From a virus (lineage: Duplodnaviria > Caudoviricetes), in the IMG/VR virus record IMGVR_UViG_3300047292_000038, positions 1-24,957 of that record: a DNA stretch of 24,957 nt; one strand, given 5' to 3'. Within the stretch, counting starts at the first letter, position 1. Each line of letters begins with the position of its first letter. Position numbers and translations under genes: made by a program. This document shows, in pieces, positions 1 to 23,316 of the stretch. The notes beneath the pieces are model-generated. The model worked only from the letters and a program-made list of their open reading frames with translations, searched no databases and was not told where the DNA came from.

Positions 1-69
1 ACTTATTTTAGTGAAATTTCACATAAGATAGATACAATTTTAAGAAAAGAATTTAATCCAGAAATGTAA
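1..69 (+). CDS. 3' end of a hypothetical protein (truncated at window start)
   Basis: Frame 1 is open from base 1 (TYFSEISHKIDTILRKEFNPEM*). The TAA stop at 67-69 is part of the TAAC of the first attC-like site. Confidence 0.55.
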   Translation, partial: TYFSEISHKIDTILRKEFNPEM

Positions 70-193
70 CGTACTGCAGCTTTGTGCAGGCGGGAAAATA
101 AACCCGAATAATTTAATTAATAACTAATCTTAAAAATAAAAAACTATGTTTAAATTAAAAACTAAGTCAAGCCATTTCTTATACACGTTGTTA
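67..193 (+). repeat. attC-like site 1 (127 bp; arms poorly complementary, possibly hybrid)
   Basis: TAACG at 67, GCTT 12 nt after the start as in sites 3 and 5, TGTTA ending at 193. Contains the ATG of the 146 ORF. Confidence 0.6.
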
Positions 194-421
194 GTGGCTG
201 TTTTATTTGTCGGTTGCGACAAAAGAAGCGAATATACAAAAAAGTATATTGTATCAAAATCTGACAATAATAACTGGACTACATCTGGAATTGTAGAATG
301 TGATAGCGTTACAATGGTAGATATTAATACAGCTACTTTATGGATTGATGGACATAAAATGAATCTAAAAGGTCAAACAGTTATAGTATATTCAAATACA
401 AGTTATGTTGCTCCAAAATAG
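146..421 (+). CDS. Putative lipoprotein (cassette 1)
   Basis: Basic N-region MFKLKTK, hydrophobic stretch FLYTLLVAVLFV and lipobox-like FVG-C24. The TAG stop lies inside the cassette-end repeat. Confidence 0.7.
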   Translation: MFKLKTKSSHFLYTLLVAVLFVGCDKRSEYTKKYIVSKSDNNNWTTSGIVECDSVTMVDINTATLWIDGHKMNLKGQTVIVYSNTSYVAPK

Positions 422-425
422 CCAC

Positions 426-496
426 TAACGTTAAAACTACACAACGCCAGCCTATGTACAATTATGATTTTGGCTGGTGGTTTGTAGTGATTGTTA
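426..496 (+). repeat. attC-like site 2 (71 bp imperfect hairpin)
   Basis: Left arm TAAC-GTTAAA-ACTAC-ACAACG-CCAGCC; reverse complement of right arm TAAC-AATC-ACTAC-AAACCA-CCAGCC. Confidence 0.75.
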
Positions 497-525
497 TATT
501 CTCGGCTTTTTTACTAACAAATTAA
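454..525 (+). CDS. Possible 23-aa hydrophobic peptide starting inside site 2
   Basis: MYNYDFGWWFVVIVIFSAFLLTN*. GTT at 493 is read in frame, as in sites 3 and 5. Confidence 0.3.
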   Translation: MYNYDFGWWFVVIVIFSAFLLTN

Positions 526-535
526 AATAAACAAA

Positions 536-802
536 ATGAAAAAAACAGTAATTACACAAATTATTGAAAGATTAGAAGATGCTCAAAAGCATATAATGGC
601 AAATACGGATTATGCTATTGGGTATGATGGAGCGTTAAGCGATGCAGTTACAGTATGTGAATCATTTTTAGAAAATGAAATTTTAGAAACTGAAAAATTT
701 GCTGTTAATTTTGTTGTATGGTTAGATAAAAACAAAAAGGAATTAAGAAAAAAAATATTGATTGACGACCTTTTAAATGAATATAAAAAACAGCTTGAGT
801 AG
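536..802 (+). CDS. Hypothetical protein (cassette 2)
   Basis: 88-aa ORF with its own A-rich leader. Shares motifs with ORFs 4026 and 4250. Confidence 0.8.
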   Translation: MKKTVITQIIERLEDAQKHIMANTDYAIGYDGALSDAVTVCESFLENEILETEKFAVNFVVWLDKNKKELRKKILIDDLLNEYKKQLE

Positions 803-834
803 CTTTGGTCACAAAGTTGCTCGAAGCTGGAATA

Positions 835-960
835 TAACGTTCGAGTGCTTGGCGAAGGAGCGGAAAAGTAAAGACCAAGTTTCGATTAATCACTAAAAAT
901 AAAAGCACAAAATGAACATTGAATTAAACCAAAAGCCACAATTGAATAAACACGCTGTTA
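835..960 (+). repeat. attC-like site 3 (126 bp)
   Basis: TAACG...TGTTA. GTGCTTGGCGAAGG (845-858) is identical to 2618-2631 at the same offset. Contains ATG 912. Confidence 0.75.
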
Positions 961-1310
961 GCAGCAGTGCTTATTCTGATTTGGCTAAATTCATAAATAA
1001 ATCACACGAACGTAGATTTAACGATGCATTAATGAAACTTGTAATAGTTGAAATCCAATTAAAAAGTTTTGATTTTAATGAAAATATGATACTTCCTAGA
1101 TACTTTAATAAAAGTGTAGAATATCAGGGAGAAACATATTTAAGAAGTGCTTTTATTAAAGATTTATTGAGCAAAAAAGCAATTAATCAAACTAAAGAAT
1201 TAATTAAAAAAGGTAGTCAAATTAATTTTAAAAACACAGAGCATTTACGAAATTGGATTTCAGAAGAGACAGGAATTAACAGCGGTTCTTTGGCTGCACT
1301 TTTTGAGTAG
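912..1310 (+). CDS. Hypothetical protein (cassette 3) with site-encoded N-terminal leader
   Basis: 132-aa ORF. The first 15 codons lie in site 3 and the TAG stop overlaps the cassette-end repeat. Confidence 0.8.
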   Translation: MNIELNQKPQLNKHAVSSSAYSDLAKFINKSHERRFNDALMKLVIVEIQLKSFDFNENMILPRYFNKSVEYQGETYLRSAFIKDLLSKKAINQTKELIKKGSQINFKNTEHLRNWISEETGINSGSLAALFE

Positions 1311-1319
1311 CATTACTGC

Positions 1320-1444
1320 TAACGGTTGGGGCTTTACGCAGTGGCAAATTTCGGAAACGTAAATTTTCCGTTACTACTGAATTTCTTGCGAAAGAAAAAC
1401 GTGATTGAACCACATATTTTGCCATTGATTTCAAGCCGATGTTA
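1320..1444 (+). repeat. attC-like site 4 (125 bp)
   Basis: Left arm TAAC-GGTTGG-GGCTT-TACG-CAGTGGCAAA; reverse complement of right arm TAAC-ATC-GGCTT-GAAAT-CAATGGCAAA. Confidence 0.8.
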
Positions 1445-1496
1445 GTAGCTGTTTACGGATTATTTTACATTTATTTTAAAAATATTTGTAATTTTA

Positions 1497-1527
1497 TTTG
1501 GTAGTTACAAAATTAGTCGTATATTTG
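1497..1527 (+). promoter_or_regulatory. Bacteroidota-type housekeeping promoter (-33 TTTG / -7 TAnnTTTG)
   Basis: TTTG 1497-1500, 19-nt spacer, TATATTTG 1520-1527, upstream of ATG 1559. Inverted repeat TTTGTAA (1485-1491) / TTACAAA (1505-1511) flanks the -33 box. Confidence 0.75.
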
Positions 1528-1558
1528 TAAAAGAAATAACAACTAAAACAAATAAATT

Positions 1559-1810
1559 ATGAAACTTACAAATGCTTTAAACCTGCTAACTGATAATGAA
1601 ATGTTATTTGAAATTGAAAAAGTAACTAAAGATTATAACAAATACACTGTTATTTTTAACCAATTTACTTTAGTTTTTTATGATAATAAATCTAATGATG
1701 CCGAAAATTTTTATATTTCTAAAAACGGAGTTGATAATGGATATAACGGATATAATGGAGAATTTTTTAAAACACTAACATCGGCTATTAATTTTTTAAA
1801 ATCAAAGTAA
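1559..1810 (+). CDS. Hypothetical protein (cassette 4)
   Basis: 83-aa ORF following the promoter and an A-rich leader. Confidence 0.8.
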   Translation: MKLTNALNLLTDNEMLFEIEKVTKDYNKYTVIFNQFTLVFYDNKSNDAENFYISKNGVDNGYNGYNGEFFKTLTSAINFLKSK

Positions 1811-1811
1811 T

Positions 1812-2060
1812 ATGAAAAATAGAGAACAAAATATAGCTTATTTTCTTTTAAAATTAGGATTTGATAAAAAAGAAATTATACATTTCATAAACAGATGCAG
1901 AGTAATACCTATGATGGGTTCGGTAATGCATATAAAAGGTTTAAGTAAATCATTTGATGATTTCTTAAAAGAAATTGTTTGGAGTAAAAATATTAAAAAC
2001 GAACATAAAATAGATGGTGTTTGTTTTAGAGAATATTTAAGTAAAACATTTGATTTATGA
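1812..2060 (+). CDS. Hypothetical protein (cassette 4)
   Basis: 82-aa ORF tightly packed in the operon. Confidence 0.75.
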   Translation: MKNREQNIAYFLLKLGFDKKEIIHFINRCRVIPMMGSVMHIKGLSKSFDDFLKEIVWSKNIKNEHKIDGVCFREYLSKTFDL

Positions 2061-2158
2061 GCATTGAACAAGAAATAAAAGTGTGGGTAATTTTTTGGAG
2101 TAGTGTAGCTTTATTTTTTTGTGTTTTATGGGTTTTAAATAATTTTAAAAATAAATAA
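2057..2158 (+). CDS. Small single-TM protein (33 aa; not in ORF track)
   Basis: ATGA overlap with the upstream stop; MSIEQEIKVWVIFWSSVALFFCVLWVLNNFKNK*; fills the gap exactly. Confidence 0.6.
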   Translation: MSIEQEIKVWVIFWSSVALFFCVLWVLNNFKNK

Positions 2159-2159
2159 T

Positions 2160-2429
2160 ATGAAGTTAATAAGATGGTTAGCAGAAGTGTCTGGGGTAGC
2201 TAATAAAATAAGACAAGAACAAACTGAATTTATAGGTCATCATTTACATAATTATAGTTATTGGTTTACTGGTGGTTTATCAAATGGAAAATACGATGTT
2301 TGCAATGCGTATGCTAAATATGCTGAATTGTTAATAAAAGGAAATTCACTTTTATGGGGAGGAATGAGTAGTAGATTAAGAGATGAATTATATGAACTTT
2401 CTAAAAAAAATGAATGTGTACATAAATAA
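2160..2429 (+). CDS. Hypothetical protein (cassette 4)
   Basis: 89-aa ORF in the operon. Confidence 0.8.
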   Translation: MKLIRWLAEVSGVANKIRQEQTEFIGHHLHNYSYWFTGGLSNGKYDVCNAYAKYAELLIKGNSLLWGGMSSRLRDELYELSKKNECVHK

Positions 2430-2435
2430 CTAGCT

Positions 2436-2603
2436 ATGCAAAGACAATCAATAATAGTTTTTATTCAAGGCGATAGAATAGAAACGTACGGAAATCTAAA
2501 AAAGTGTTGTGAGTTTGAAAAATTACCCTACCACACTTTAGCACGTTTAAAATTTCCAATTCGGCTGAATGATGTCGTTATACACAAAACGCTCTTTAAA
2601 TAG
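2436..2603 (+). CDS. Small putative HTH DNA-binding protein (55 aa; not in ORF track)
   Basis: MQRQSIIVFIQGDRIETYGNLKKCCEFEKLPYHTLARLKFPIRLNDVVIHKTLFK*. Beta-hairpin plus HTH-like pattern; TAG lies within the cassette-end repeat. Confidence 0.6.
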   Translation: MQRQSIIVFIQGDRIETYGNLKKCCEFEKLPYHTLARLKFPIRLNDVVIHKTLFK

Positions 2604-2607
2604 CTAC

Positions 2608-2732
2608 TAACGGTTCGGTGCTTGGCGAAGGCTGGGATTAGAACCACTAAACTTTAAATTTAAAACAAATGATTATAGAAAGCACAAACGTTGATTTAGC
2701 ACAGAAGCCCAGCTTTTGCCAAACACCTGTTA
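2608..2732 (+). repeat. attC-like site 5 (125 bp)
   Basis: Left arm TAAC-GGTTC-GGTGCTTGGCGAAGGCTGGG; reverse complement of right arm TAAC-A-GGTGTTTGGCAAAAGCTGGG (20-bp stem, 3 mismatches). Contains ATG 2669. Confidence 0.85.
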
Positions 2733-3598
2733 CAGGCAGTACGGGTTTTAATGTACTATCTCTTTTCGATGGTATGTCTTGTGGTCAATTAGCGTTACAA
2801 AAGGCAGGAATAAAAGTAGATAATTATTTTGCGAGTGAAATTAAAAAACACGCAATACAATGTACTAAAGACAATTTTCCAAACACTAAACATATTGGTG
2901 ATGTAACAAAAGTAAAAGCTACTGATTTACCAAAAATTGATTTATTGATAGGTGGAAGTCCTTGTCAAGATTTTAGTCGTGCAAATAGCGTTCGTGATGG
3001 TTTACAAGGAATGAAATCAATGTTATTTTATGAGTACATAAGATTGCTTGAAGAAACAAAACCAAAATACTATTTACTTGAAAACGTGATAATGGATGAT
3101 ATAGGTTACAGTACAATATCTGATTTATTAGGAACTGAACCCGTAAGGCTGTGTGGTTCAAAAGTAAGTGGTGCATTAAGAGATAGATTGTTTTGGACTA
3201 ATATCGGGCCTGAAAGTTTTGATTTATTTGGAAATCGTAAAAGTGCAATACCACAACCGAGAGATAAAAAAATAATGCTGAATGATGTTTTAGAATATGG
3301 ATATTCAGATAAACGAAAACACACTTGTTTAAATACAAGTTGTGGCCGAGATGCAAACCAACGATATATGTTGCATAGATACGCAACTACTGGAATGACA
3401 ACAATAATTTATACAGACGAAACTATGGATGAAAGTAAAGGAGTGAGATATTGCACTCAAACAGAATTAGAAAAACTGCACAATATCCCAATAGGTTATA
3501 CAAAAAACCTAAATAAAGCACAAGCTGGTAATTTAATTGGCGATGGTTGGAATGTAGGGATTGTGGAGCACATTTTCTCTTATATGCAATCAACGTAG
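2669..3598 (+). CDS. DNA (cytosine-5) methyltransferase (cassette 5)
   Basis: Motif I SLFDGMSCG, catalytic GGSPCQDFS, LLENV, RxRLFW and C-terminal LIGDGW. Confidence 0.93.
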   Translation: MIIESTNVDLAQKPSFCQTPVTGSTGFNVLSLFDGMSCGQLALQKAGIKVDNYFASEIKKHAIQCTKDNFPNTKHIGDVTKVKATDLPKIDLLIGGSPCQDFSRANSVRDGLQGMKSMLFYEYIRLLEETKPKYYLLENVIMDDIGYSTISDLLGTEPVRLCGSKVSGALRDRLFWTNIGPESFDLFGNRKSAIPQPRDKKIMLNDVLEYGYSDKRKHTCLNTSCGRDANQRYMLHRYATTGMTTIIYTDETMDESKGVRYCTQTELEKLHNIPIGYTKNLNKAQAGNLIGDGWNVGIVEHIFSYMQST

Positions 3599-3643
3599 TA
3601 TTACTGGCAACTACTTGCTAACCGCTATAAATGTATTACAATT

Positions 3644-3820
3644 ATGAAACTATACACTAAAACAAAGGTTATAAGGATTTCAGAAAGTCAGTTAAAAACG
3701 CTGCAAAAAATGAAGGCTTACAATGTTGATGTAGGGCATTTTATTCGTGAAGCAATCAAAGAAAAGATTAAAAAAGAGTATAAAGAATTAATGCCTAAAC
3801 AAATTAAAACACCATTTTAA
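3644..3820 (+). CDS. Putative ribbon-helix-helix DNA-binding protein (58 aa; not in ORF track)
   Basis: MKLYTKTKVIRISESQLKTLQKMKAYNVDVGHFIREAIKEKIKK...: alternating beta strand followed by two helices. Confidence 0.7.
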   Translation: MKLYTKTKVIRISESQLKTLQKMKAYNVDVGHFIREAIKEKIKKEYKELMPKQIKTPF

Positions 3821-3822
3821 AA

Positions 3823-4029
3823 ATGAAACAATCAAAACAAAAATCTTTAGTTGAGAGCACTGTACAGACTATTATAGGCCTTGCAACTTCAATAGTGCTT
3901 CAGGTGGTACTATATCCGATATTAGGTATTCCCGTATCGTTTACACAAAATTTAATAATAACAGCCGTGTTCTTTATAGTTTCTATTGTAAGAGGGTATA
4001 TCGTACGACGAATCTTTGAAAAACTATGA
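3823..4029 (+). CDS. Small two-TM membrane protein
   Basis: 68 aa, two hydrophobic segments, C-terminal RGYIVRRIF. Confidence 0.8.
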   Translation: MKQSKQKSLVESTVQTIIGLATSIVLQVVLYPILGIPVSFTQNLIITAVFFIVSIVRGYIVRRIFEKL

Positions 4030-4870: not shown

Positions 4871-5155
4871 TCACTATACGAAACAATCGACATTTTAAGA
4901 AAAGACCAAGGGCACAAACTTTGGGGTAAACAGTTTAATAAGTTTGACAAAGACGACTGGGCGGAAATTGAAAGGATTGAAAAATCCGATCCTGTTCAAT
5001 ATGCGAAAAAAGGAAAAACAAAAGAGGTTATGAAAATAAGCACAGGCGAAACCTTTAAGAATATTACACAATGTGCACTGGCCAACGGTATGCACCGTAA
5101 TACTCTTTTTGCGATGTTGTCTCGGGGGTATAAATGTGATTATAGACTGGTATGA
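4865..5155 (+). CDS. Hypothetical protein with C-terminal NUMOD1-like HTH
   Basis: KEVMKISTGETFKNITQCALANGMHRNTLFAML resembles the NUMOD1/IENR1 DNA-binding module. Confidence 0.65.
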   Translation: MKSLYETIDILRKDQGHKLWGKQFNKFDKDDWAEIERIEKSDPVQYAKKGKTKEVMKISTGETFKNITQCALANGMHRNTLFAMLSRGYKCDYRLV

Positions 5156-5775
5156 TGACAATTACAAACGAAGATAATATGCAGCTAATGGCTCGTTACC
5201 CTGATAACTATTTTGATTTGGCGATTGTTGATCCGCCTTATGGGATAGGATTTGACGGCTCAAAGAAAAGTACAAGTAAGCACGGTGGTAGAAAAGAATA
5301 TCAATTTAAAGGATGGGATAATAAAATACCTGAAAAAAAATACTTTAATGAATTGTTTCGTGTTTCTAAGAATCAAATAATTTGGGGTGCTAATTATTTT
5401 ACTAAATATTTACCAAGCTCAATGGGTTGGATATTTTGGGATAAAGGACAAAGAATTTGTAATTCAGATGGTGAATTAGCTTTTACTTCTTTTCAACAAG
5501 CGTTAAGGGTTGCTGAATATAACAGATGCGAAATACAAAAACACGGTGGTGCAATACACCCAACCCAAAAACCCGTTGCACTTTACAAATGGATATTAGA
5601 TAAATACGCAAAGCAAGGAGATAAAATACTTGACACGCATTTAGGAAGTGGAAGTATTGCAATAGCTTGCCACGATTACTGTTTTGATTTGACCGCTTGT
5701 GAATTAGATAAAGAATACTTTGACAAAGCAATGGAAAGAATTACGAATCACGTTGCACAACAAAAACTATTTTAG
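5152..5775 (+). CDS. DNA N6-adenine/N4-cytosine methyltransferase (beta class)
   Basis: Catalytic VDPPY precedes HPTQKP and the SAM-binding LDTHLGSGS. Confidence 0.93.
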   Translation: MMTITNEDNMQLMARYPDNYFDLAIVDPPYGIGFDGSKKSTSKHGGRKEYQFKGWDNKIPEKKYFNELFRVSKNQIIWGANYFTKYLPSSMGWIFWDKGQRICNSDGELAFTSFQQALRVAEYNRCEIQKHGGAIHPTQKPVALYKWILDKYAKQGDKILDTHLGSGSIAIACHDYCFDLTACELDKEYFDKAMERITNHVAQQKLF

Positions 5776-6569: not shown

Positions 6570-7247
6570 ATGAAAAACGAAATTCAAATAATGCCAGTAA
6601 ATGACATTATGATTATGGCAAAAACTTTTGCCGAAAGTGGAATGTTTACCGATGCAAAAGCAATGGGACAAGCATTTGTTAAAATTCAAGCCGGGCAGGA
6701 AATTGGAATACCTCCATTTGCTGCAATGAGTGGTATTCATATCATTCAAGGAAAACCAACTTTAGGAGCTGGATTAATTGCAAGTGCGGTTAAAGGTTCT
6801 GGAAAGTATGATTATAAAGTTAAAGAAATGAACGAAAAGATTTGTTCAATTGACTTTTTACAAGGAACTGAAAATATCGGAAATTCTACTTTTACAATTG
6901 AAGATGCCAAAAAAGCAGGAACAAAAAATATCGACAAGTTTCCTAAAAATATGCTTTTTGCCCGTGCTATTTCAAACGGAGTTAAATGGTTTTGTCCAGA
7001 TGTGTTTGCTGGACCAGTTTATGTGCCAGAAGAAATGCCAGAGCAAACAGTAGATGTGCAACACGTGGAAATAATAGACCAACCGAAAGTATCTAAATTA
7101 TCACAAAAGCAAATTGATAAAATTTTAACTTCGGATATTGCGACTGTAAAAAAAGCATTAAAAGCAATTGAAACAGGAACAGCCGAAGCTACTCCAGAGC
7201 AAGTTGCACAAATTGAAATATATCACGAACTATTAATTAATTCTTAA
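6570..7247 (+). CDS. RecT/Red-beta-like single-strand annealing protein
   Basis: VKIQAGQEIGIPPFAAMSGIHIIQGKPTL and PKNMLFARAIS...CPDV patterns; lies beside the SSB-like and nuclease genes. Confidence 0.75.
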   Translation: MKNEIQIMPVNDIMIMAKTFAESGMFTDAKAMGQAFVKIQAGQEIGIPPFAAMSGIHIIQGKPTLGAGLIASAVKGSGKYDYKVKEMNEKICSIDFLQGTENIGNSTFTIEDAKKAGTKNIDKFPKNMLFARAISNGVKWFCPDVFAGPVYVPEEMPEQTVDVQHVEIIDQPKVSKLSQKQIDKILTSDIATVKKALKAIETGTAEATPEQVAQIEIYHELLINS

Positions 7248-22215: not shown

Positions 22216-22761
22216 ATGCCTTGCGATATATCATTAGGAAGAATAGAACAATGTAAGGATTCTGTAGGAGGTTTAAAAGCGGTTTACTTCATTAATTGGG
22301 GTGATGCTACAACTGTAACATATTCTGCAACTGCTGGACAAGAAGATGTAATTATAGCTTTGGGCGGAACGCCTGTGGGTTATAAATATGAATTGAAAGG
22401 TACAAGTTCTTTTGAACAAACTTTAACAAGTTCAAGAGATAACGGAACTACTTTTGTAGAACAAAAATTGACATTAAATTTGAAAAAATTGTCGATTGCA
22501 GACCACAAACAAATCAAACTTTTGGCATACGGTCGCCCTCAAATAATTATAGAGGATAACAACGGCAACTGGTTTATGTCAGGTTTGACTTTGGGAATGG
22601 ATTTAACAACTGCTGCAATCACTACGGGTGCTGCAATGGGAGATGCTTCTTCTTATAACTTAGAGTTTCAAGGAATGGAGCCTAAACCAGCTAATTTTAT
22701 TGTCCCTGTTGCGGGTACTTTAACAACTGCTGTATTAGCTTCTATCGTTTCGGGTACTTAA
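22216..22761 (+). CDS. Putative major tail tube protein, paralog 1
   Basis: 181 aa, beta-rich; CKDSVGGLKAVYF, NGTTFVEQKL and EDNNGN. Confidence 0.65.
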   Translation: MPCDISLGRIEQCKDSVGGLKAVYFINWGDATTVTYSATAGQEDVIIALGGTPVGYKYELKGTSSFEQTLTSSRDNGTTFVEQKLTLNLKKLSIADHKQIKLLAYGRPQIIIEDNNGNWFMSGLTLGMDLTTAAITTGAAMGDASSYNLEFQGMEPKPANFIVPVAGTLTTAVLASIVSGT

Positions 22762-22779: not shown

Positions 22780-23316
22780 ATGGCTTGTGATATTGGATTG
22801 GGGCGTATAGAACCCTGTAAGGACAGTTTGGGCGGATTAAGAGCTGTTTATTTTTCTAATTATAGAAATAATTTAGATATTCAATATACATCTGGTGCAG
22901 GAAATGAAGATGTTATTTCTGAATTGGGTGGTGGCACTTTAACAGCTTATAAATATGAATTAAAAGGCGCTTCTACATTTGAACAAACTGTAACGAGTTC
23001 AAGGGAAAATGGAACTACATTTGTAGAACAAAAACTATCTTTAGATTTAAAAAAATTAACTATACAAGACCATAAACAGTTACGTTTATTGGCTTATAGC
23101 AGGCCACATATATTTGTAGAAGATAATAATGGTAATATATTTGTTGCTGGACTAATGAAAGGAATGGATTTAGTTTCTTCTACAATTTCAACAGGTGCTG
23201 CGATGGGAGATATGTCAGGATATAAATTAGAATTTTCTGGCACTGAATTTAAACCCGCTAATTTTATTGAAAGTGGTGATTTAAGTGGGGCTTTAGTTAC
23301 TATTGTAACTGGATAA
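22780..23316 (+). CDS. Putative major tail tube protein, paralog 2
   Basis: 178 aa; aligns end to end with the preceding gene. Confidence 0.65.
   Translation: MACDIGLGRIEPCKDSLGGLRAVYFSNYRNNLDIQYTSGAGNEDVISELGGGTLTAYKYELKGASTFEQTVTSSRENGTTFVEQKLSLDLKKLTIQDHKQLRLLAYSRPHIFVEDNNGNIFVAGLMKGMDLVSSTISTGAAMGDMSGYKLEFSGTEFKPANFIESGDLSGALVTIVTG

Follow-up and report, generated by a model that had tools for sequence, protein, structure and literature searches.

The virus record IMGVR_UViG_3300047292_000038 (Duplodnaviria; Caudoviricetes) consists of 24,957 bases, and the whole of it was analysed here as a single window; the record is about 78% complete. Between the stop codon of a fixed phage gene (67-69) and an attI-like docking site (3608-3643) lies a real, complete and partly decayed integron-like array of five gene cassettes without a recombinase of its own, whose proposed mechanism is well supported by comparative data. 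We consider it quite probable that each cassette is a unit running from AAC to AAC with a hairpin site in front of its gene, and that such units are inserted and excised by a tyrosine recombinase that resembles integron integrases, lacks the IntI insertion and comes from the host or from a co-infecting phage. Comparison of related loci establishes the unit borders, the fixed docking site, the gain and loss of whole units and, in other genomes, the link between recombinase and array. Judging from the taxa that carry the site pattern, the host would be a member of Bacteroidota: the 80 genome loci listed have mostly Bacteroidota titles, and the other phyla among them are likely to be chance matches or binning errors. 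All features given below for the window lie on the plus strand.

A preliminary description of this DNA had listed five sites that begin with TAACG and end with TGTTA, and they are indeed present at 67-193, 426-496, 835-960, 1320-1444 and 2608-2732, with lengths of 127, 71, 126, 125 and 125 nt. It had also proposed that the two ends of each gene unit pair with each other. This stands: the ends of the five units form 14, 11, 13, 14 and 9 Watson-Crick pairs over 15 positions. At the 11 positions beyond the core the flanks form 10, 7, 9, 10 and 6 pairs across the unit versus 1, 3, 2, 4 and 3 across the site. Among 359 viral units, from which only exact copies had been removed, complementarity was 0.71 for a unit's own ends, 0.33 for the flanks of the same site and 0.34 +/- 0.01 in a permuted control. 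The end pairing is not chance. In these units it extends over exactly 15 positions and nothing beyond. Elsewhere in the window the same unit search gave one weak candidate, and on the minus strand none. Two earlier statements need correction. Sites 2, 4 and 5 had been said to fold into long hairpins; compared with shuffled sequences this holds for sites 2 (z-score -3.0) and 5 (z -2.5) and fails for site 4 (z -0.7), while sites 1 and 3 gave z -0.5 and +1.5. Nor is the TAAC/GTTA core strictly invariant, the last junction being CAAC at 3608.

The sites of the window belong to a large family. A 16-letter pattern derived from sites 3 and 5 occurs in at least 129 viral and at least 127 genome stretches (estimated totals about 710 and about 2,300), and a hairpin detector recorded 782 sites in 3.08 Mb of selected loci versus 17 in 0.54 Mb of shuffled sequence. 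Read on the coding strand, a family site opens with TAAC; five unpaired bases lead into a stem of about 20 pairs closed by a loop, and a single base separates the stem from the terminal GTTA. Most sites measure 120-130 nt in all, and the spacer offset is most often 4 nt (475 of 782 sites). A matching right arm was found for 185 of 260 left-arm matches, and variable stem positions pair at 0.90 versus 0.48 after permutation; the remaining 75 include hybrids, variants missed by the pattern and chance matches. Stem position 11 is T in 100% of the 359 viral units, opposite G in 80%. Of the two strands in circle form, the coding one folds better in 99% of 264 units. Covariation, wobble bias and the strand bias of folding are all, indirectly, as expected of a substrate that folds as a single strand. 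One phage array is very large: a 170-kb contig (L017, L057, L069) has at least 20 sites in the 15 kb before its recombinase and more upstream.

Where the units begin and end can be read from breakpoints. The preliminary description placed the crossover at G|TTA on the plus strand, with each hairpin belonging to the gene upstream of it, and proposed to check whether gene-content breakpoints fall there. They fall at the left AAC instead. Pairs of near-identical sites were compared among 557 sites from 329 viral loci: 69 of the 354 pairs (21 clusters) share only the downstream sequence, none shares only the upstream sequence, three share both and 282 neither. Since the crossover lies in the left AAC (21 clusters versus none), each hairpin travels with the gene downstream. 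When two loci share a cassette end (47 pairs, 23 clusters), identity falls from 0.96-1.0 to background right after TAACG. The base before AAC follows the upstream unit and the base after AAC follows the downstream unit, and hence the crossover is within AAC. The clearest single case is that of the phages L365 and L367, which are 100% identical except for one 811-nt unit that runs from AAC to AAC, with only 6 shared letters at the indel. IntI cuts at AA|C on the bottom strand of attC, and by analogy AA|C may well be the scissile bond in these arrays too.

Crossover at G|TTA is not supported by these comparisons and was rejected. Moreover, three of the five window open reading frames (ORFs) start inside the hairpin, at 146, 912 and 2669 (cassettes 1, 3 and 5), and would be cut by it; the longest ORF of a unit starts inside the hairpin in 109 of 359 cases. 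The cassette coordinates and the circle junction predicted earlier are therefore wrong, as breakpoints sit at the left AAC. The more general proposals have fared better: breakpoint comparisons bear out mobile gene cassettes that are exchanged at a fixed core, whole units moving with a crossover in GTT/AAC as in integrons, and they support a distinct cassette family of Bacteroidota and their phages. Among the viral units, 353 of 361 have the site in front of the gene, which is not the integron order of gene and then attC. Bacterial units have mixed polarity, with 25 of 44 in the usual integron order (these counts include L269 from the unpublished genome G045); the polarity test on bacterial loci gave one pair versus one, too few to inform.

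The preliminary description lacked the docking site at 3608-3643, as it did the damage to sites 1, 3 and 4. Behind the AAC core of the docking site, conserved sequence reaches to the start codon of a fixed 58-amino-acid gene (3644-3820; weak DUF6290 match; phrog_25647), which marks the right border. The conserved stretch is present in 36 of 41 loci with this gene; its core letters are fixed by construction because the stretch was found by pattern. In the 34 docking loci with full flank there are 30 different cassette ends, all with T at position 11, and the close relatives L353 and L367 differ at the docking-proximal cassette. The left border is formed by the 3' end of a fixed phage gene (1-69), an open frame whose stop TAA occupies 67-69. 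These 69 positions are 93-94% identical in L358 and L359 and are followed there by different first cassettes; both loci have the two array borders of the window with other arrays between them, and L359 begins with a cassette-2-type unit. A single docking site with the GTT/AAC core is likewise found before the recombinase in other phages and in the Freya series described below. The end of cassette 2 precedes ten other contexts and its start follows four other upstream flanks; the end of cassette 4 adjoins a recombinase-linked docking site in L423. The ten contexts and the latter junction indicate that the cassettes of the window belong to a shared pool, with cassettes presumably entering in order at the docking site.

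What enzyme could move them? The statement that no integrase is encoded in the window was confirmed, as there is no match to PF00589, and the suggestion of a recombinase encoded elsewhere gains support from other genomes. Within the phage family of the window PF00589 occurs in two of 40 records, as long proteins of 393-408 amino acids away from the array; it was found in one of the eight family records that are at least 90% complete and in none of the other seven. In loci selected through their sites, a short recombinase lies just downstream of the arrays. This phage enzyme is a tyrosine recombinase of 265-300 amino acids without the IntI-specific insertion. A protein search gave 429 viral relatives, and the neighbourhoods of the best 80 of these 429, picked by protein alone, contain 206 sites upstream on the same strand versus 11 that lie downstream and 14 that lie on the other strand. 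Among these best 80, 50 loci have 2 kb upstream, and in 47 of them a site is present within 3 kb of the recombinase. A conserved site of the type AAC-TAYTATAT stands about 45-60 nt before the recombinase start codon in phage loci.

The array-linked enzymes keep the catalytic residues R, K, H, R, H and Y and have 69-74 residues where IntI1 has 115, and the IntI insertion was found neither in them nor in the window. They match TIGR02249 in two stretches with 133-209 bits (cut-off 265) and pass no IntI or Xer profile, being far under the cut-offs of TIGR02224 and TIGR02225; their best profile and Protein Data Bank scores are to XerA, with 176-216 bits at a cut-off of 220. In a tree of 31 proteins XerC and XerD form their own clade (99/100), outside of which the array-linked enzymes sit in an unresolved fork with IntI1, the one IntI row of the tree, and IS91-linked recombinases. 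The structure model of one array-linked enzyme resembles XerA and VchIntIA (2a3v, template modelling (TM) score 0.69).

A longer chromosomal homolog occurs in 35 of 61 Flavobacterium genomes. The recombinase is present in 21 of 22 chromosomal stretches, three of which were first found through sites; 69 sites are downstream of it and oriented oppositely, and 5 share its strand and lie upstream. In loci picked by protein, sites lie downstream of the recombinase in 12 of 17. By eye, a docking-like motif can be seen about 100 nt past the recombinase stop. True IntI was also looked for in nine non-Bacteroidota genomes; none was found, and as the controls gave none either, this result is uninformative. 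Several further observations concern these recombinases. Two chromosomal ones (L515, L516) have sites upstream on the same strand, a phage-like arrangement. Acinetobacter and Salmonella plasmids (H38-H42, H44) carry homologs of the Bacteroidota chromosomal recombinase with 48-64% identity. In L277 (1609-2749) and L245 (6390-7313) related recombinase genes, followed by an apparent IS91-type transposase, lie at or near family sites, directly after a site in L277; the IS91-type label comes from likeness to an annotated pair in L525. Possibly this element targets the hairpins. The ORF that follows the chromosomal recombinase in L239 (after 8058) looks, from its start, like a single-strand DNA binding protein.

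Cultured Polaribacter phages provide a further series. Ten Freya isolates of 44.0-48.9 kb have been described, with their integrase taken as a sign of lysogeny (Bartlau et al., PMC8776804); in the available part of that paper the words integron and cassette are absent. These phages encode a recombinase of the array type (35% identity). Seven of the ten isolates were compared. Whole units, in runs that extend to the docking site, are missing from Freya 1, 2, 5 and 9, and a single inner unit is missing from Freya 8; Freya 6 carries an additional unit of 472 nt at the docking site. All junctions are at AAC, beside the recombinase.

The following mechanism can be suggested. The coding strand of an excised circle would fold, its outer 15-bp stem being formed by the two ends of the cassette itself. 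The enzyme would cut AA|C on the folded coding strand, as IntI does on the bottom strand of attC, and the cut strand would be joined to the docking site, so that in the window new cassettes would enter beside 3611. Compared with those of an integron, the genes have the reverse orientation and therefore lie on the strand that the phage itself transcribes. A second route may be homology-driven crossover inside the hairpin loops, likely via the RecT-like protein of the phage. Homologous crossover of this kind would have frozen cassettes 1 and 3, and possibly 4 and 5.

Cassette 1 (70-428) consists of site 1 and an ORF of 91 amino acids (146-421) that belongs to no family. Its site is a hybrid hairpin with 5 of 14 stem pairs: comparison with L334, L151 and L365 gives a left arm of the L365 type and a right arm of the L334 type, joined in shared loop sequence. 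Cassette 2 (429-837), with an 88-amino-acid ORF (536-802), is the one that looks fully intact; its short hairpin has 11 of 14 stem pairs and belongs to a second geometric class. Sites of this 70-nt class, with bulged bases and different spacing, also occur in L342, L359, L371, L373 and L400. Cassette 3 (838-1322) encodes 132 amino acids (912-1310) behind a hybrid hairpin (stem 8 of 14) with a foreign left arm; L331 has the same cassette with a pairing left arm, as terminal unit and among other neighbours.

Cassette 4 (1323-2610) is the longest. Its site has a damaged or replaced left arm (stem 7 of 14; an intact version exists in L344/L370), and behind it come a stretch at 1497-1527 that we take to be promoter-like from its match to the promoter consensus, four small ORFs of 80-90 amino acids or less (1559-1810, 1812-2060, 2160-2429 and, by eye, a short frame at about 2057-2160) and a terminal ORF of 55 amino acids (2436-2603). 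The start of the cassette and its terminal ORF are kept with different inner genes in L343, L423, L035 and the sequencing run X4. The promoter-like stretch is likewise kept in the relatives at L343 8600-9600, L423 8950-9960 and L035 1830-2700, where the genes in between change completely; this type looks like a carrier cassette with replaceable cargo. Cassette 5 (2611-3610) has an intact hairpin of TAAC, five unpaired nucleotides, stem, loop with start codon 2669, stem, one nucleotide and GTTA, and carries a C5 cytosine DNA methyltransferase gene (2669-3598; PF00145, E 2e-32). Its poorly paired ends suggest that it is likely a chimera of two methylase cassettes. Site 5 and its downstream gene stand behind different upstream flanks in L115, L010 and L077. 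Seven small cassette proteins were tested and none was named by Pfam or PHROGs.

The run X1, possibly that of the source sample, sheds some light on the damaged sites. One of its contigs covers 98-1493, which shows that sites 3 and 4 did not arise where contigs were joined. The X1 path forks at 127, in the loop of site 1, into the form of the window (depth 85) and another form (depth 70). The simplest cause of the hybrids is likely homologous crossover, with the RecT-like protein as its probable source. Contigs of four runs contained no circles or clean cassette-deletion joints; contigs drop rare forms, and 2561-3600 is almost uncovered in X1. Broken hairpins might have been expected to be more frequent in recombinase-less phages. 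This idea found no support (4 of 59 versus 6 of 165, two of the four being those of the window).

How firmly do these observations hold the proposal that the array is moved by an integron-integrase-like enzyme? Several points weigh against it. The mechanism is drawn from comparison, and no recombination, circle or strand bias has been observed; the exact scissile bond inside AAC is not readable from sequence. As many as 282 of the 354 similar-site pairs share neither flank, which shows hairpins to recur with new genes through a route left unexplained. Three of the five hairpins of the window are broken (sites 1, 3 and 4), two of them clear hybrids, compared with 10 of 224 units in related loci, where two of the ten are the window's own; therefore the array may be largely inactive. 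The link between recombinase and arrays is one of adjacency in other genomes. The docking site of the window has only the AAC-TA core in common with recombinase-linked docking sites, and it is hence by extension that we infer the same enzyme to act here. L365 is 49% and L367 23% complete, and with the window at about 78% a recombinase elsewhere in any of these three phages is possible. In the Freya series the junctions of Freya 1, 2 and 8 are at the record origin and may be assembly effects, which leaves Freya 5, 6 and 9 as internal cases.

Some of these points could be explained if the array were a frozen relic, inserted by the recombinase of an ancestor, in a phage family that now exchanges cassettes only by homologous recombination. 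The absence of PF00589 from the window and from seven of eight near-complete relatives would fit this, as would three broken hairpins and one mismatched pair of ends, the hybrids with crossovers in shared loop sequence, the RecT-like gene and the X1 branch in the loop of site 1. We nevertheless regard it as unlikely. An exact 811-nt indel separates otherwise identical phages of the same family, the docking site shows 30 different ends and differs in its proximal cassette even between L353 and L367, and the hairpins of the family are mostly intact, 51 of 59 having at least 10 of 14 pairs. It is much less likely still that the hairpins are repeated expression signals, RNA leaders or terminators, which serve as homology patches for modular gene exchange. 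In 109 of 359 units the start codon does fall within the hairpin, of the two strands the coding one folds better, as an RNA would, and hybrids exist. However, this would leave unexplained the exact 15-bp pairing of ends that are hundreds of bases apart, the breakpoints at AAC and the one-sided link to a tyrosine recombinase. No Rfam match at threshold was found in window positions 1-4000, where a single sub-threshold match is due to chance, and a terminator scan gave no terminator-like matches that account for the five sites.

The array could also be an ordinary cluster of attC sites lacking an integron integrase (CALIN), derived from a host integron and acted on by a true IntI, with crossover at G|TT after each gene. 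The AAC/GTT core and the complementary cassette ends are as in integrons, and the accessible text of Qi et al. (2023, PMC9892861) reports CALINs in phages, one of them in a Polaribacter phage. Yet we find this the least credible of the alternatives, and the breakpoint data appear to have largely refuted it already. Polarity is 21 clusters versus none, the spacers have 5 and 1 nt versus 6 and 5 in attC aadA7, and the linked enzymes fall short of the TIGR02249 cut-off. The attC1 site of the Polaribacter phage P12002L, by anatomy a site of the array family, was the one of six sites not recombined by IntI1, as far as the accessible text reports (PMC9892861); since the cloned version had the array form and short flanks, this is no clean test of IntI1. 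P12002L (L460 28900-40800) has at least six cassette ends of the array family on the minus strand, versus two sites in print.

The window as a whole is that of a phage with terminase, primase/helicase, RecT-like protein and two DNA methylases. The RecT-like single-strand annealing protein (6570-7247; phrog_561, E 1e-17) is encoded outside the array, as is the second methylase gene, of N6/N4 type (5152-5775), around which no sites were detected. Two tandem paralogous genes of the structural region (22216-22761 and 22780-23316) have 72-74% DNA identity. A sigma-70 scan gave 16 promoter-like sites versus 21 expected.

If the proposal of a recombinase-driven array is correct, part of phage genome mosaicism would have a site-specific mechanism, hairpin recombination would proceed without the IntI insertion, and the homology-independent gene capture reported in Flavobacteriia may find an explanation. 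The data point to a widespread gene-capture system. With less assurance than for the array itself, we favour a broader idea: that Bacteroidota and their phages have a second integron-type system, with a recombinase lacking the domain held essential for hairpin recombination and with cassettes inverted in phages; that recombinase-less families keep the docking site and parasitise the enzyme of a host or neighbour to load methylases and accessory genes; and that the Freya "integrase" would be a cassette shuffler and not a lysogeny enzyme. Since cultures exist of both the Freya isolates and their host, the claim is directly testable. No description of the system emerged from literature searches, to which subscription papers and bioRxiv supplements were mostly closed.

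We know of related systems with which it can be compared. In Riemerella anatipestifer a gene was integrated, together with 27 bp of upstream sequence and a hairpin of 140 bp on its downstream side, without flanking homology, by a mechanism that the authors left open in the accessible text (PMC13148043). Sites of the array family occur in a Riemerella locus (L237), and the hairpins are alike by description only; the polarity there is, however, the chromosomal one. Integron-like simple tyrosine recombinases (Smyshlyaev et al. 2021, PMC8138268) can be likened to the array-linked enzymes, again by description only; in the accessible text no cassette function is given for members without the insertion, which is called essential for integron function. 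XerA is the closest by score, below its cut-off, and the XerC/XerD clade is separate. Integrons are rare in phages, 21 in 10,705, with a count of 17 CALINs in these 10,705 phages, according to the accessible text of PMC9892861, and the part of the IntegronFinder 2.0 paper available (PMC9024848) gives for Bacteroidota integrase-only elements and one complete integron, i.e. very few. The phage CALINs of Qi et al. are also integrase-less cassette clusters, often with DNA methylase genes, but their sites are treated as canonical attC, and no separate family or recombinase is named in the text accessible (PMC9892861).

With integrons themselves the system has in common the AAC/GTT core borders, complementary unit ends, one hairpin site per cassette and, in other genomes, an adjacent tyrosine recombinase whose structure model matches VchIntIA and one docking site whose AAC stands ahead of the recombinase start in the same orientation (attI1 in L522; phage loci). 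It differs in its enzyme, which lacks the IntI insertion of about 40 residues, and in its sites. The outer stem has 15 bp and a fixed T-G pair, and the arms of the main family are equal in length without a bulged base; the 7-bp R box, the 5-6 nt spacers in both arms and the extrahelical bases of attC, which have a role on the folded strand (PMC3053210, in its accessible part), are not seen in this family. Site 2 carries bulges, yet with spacing other than that of attC. In phages the genes have the opposite orientation with respect to the site, within which they often begin, and chromosomal arrays lie past the 3' end of the recombinase. The array works like an integron, and by integrase, attC and gene order it is not a member of that class.

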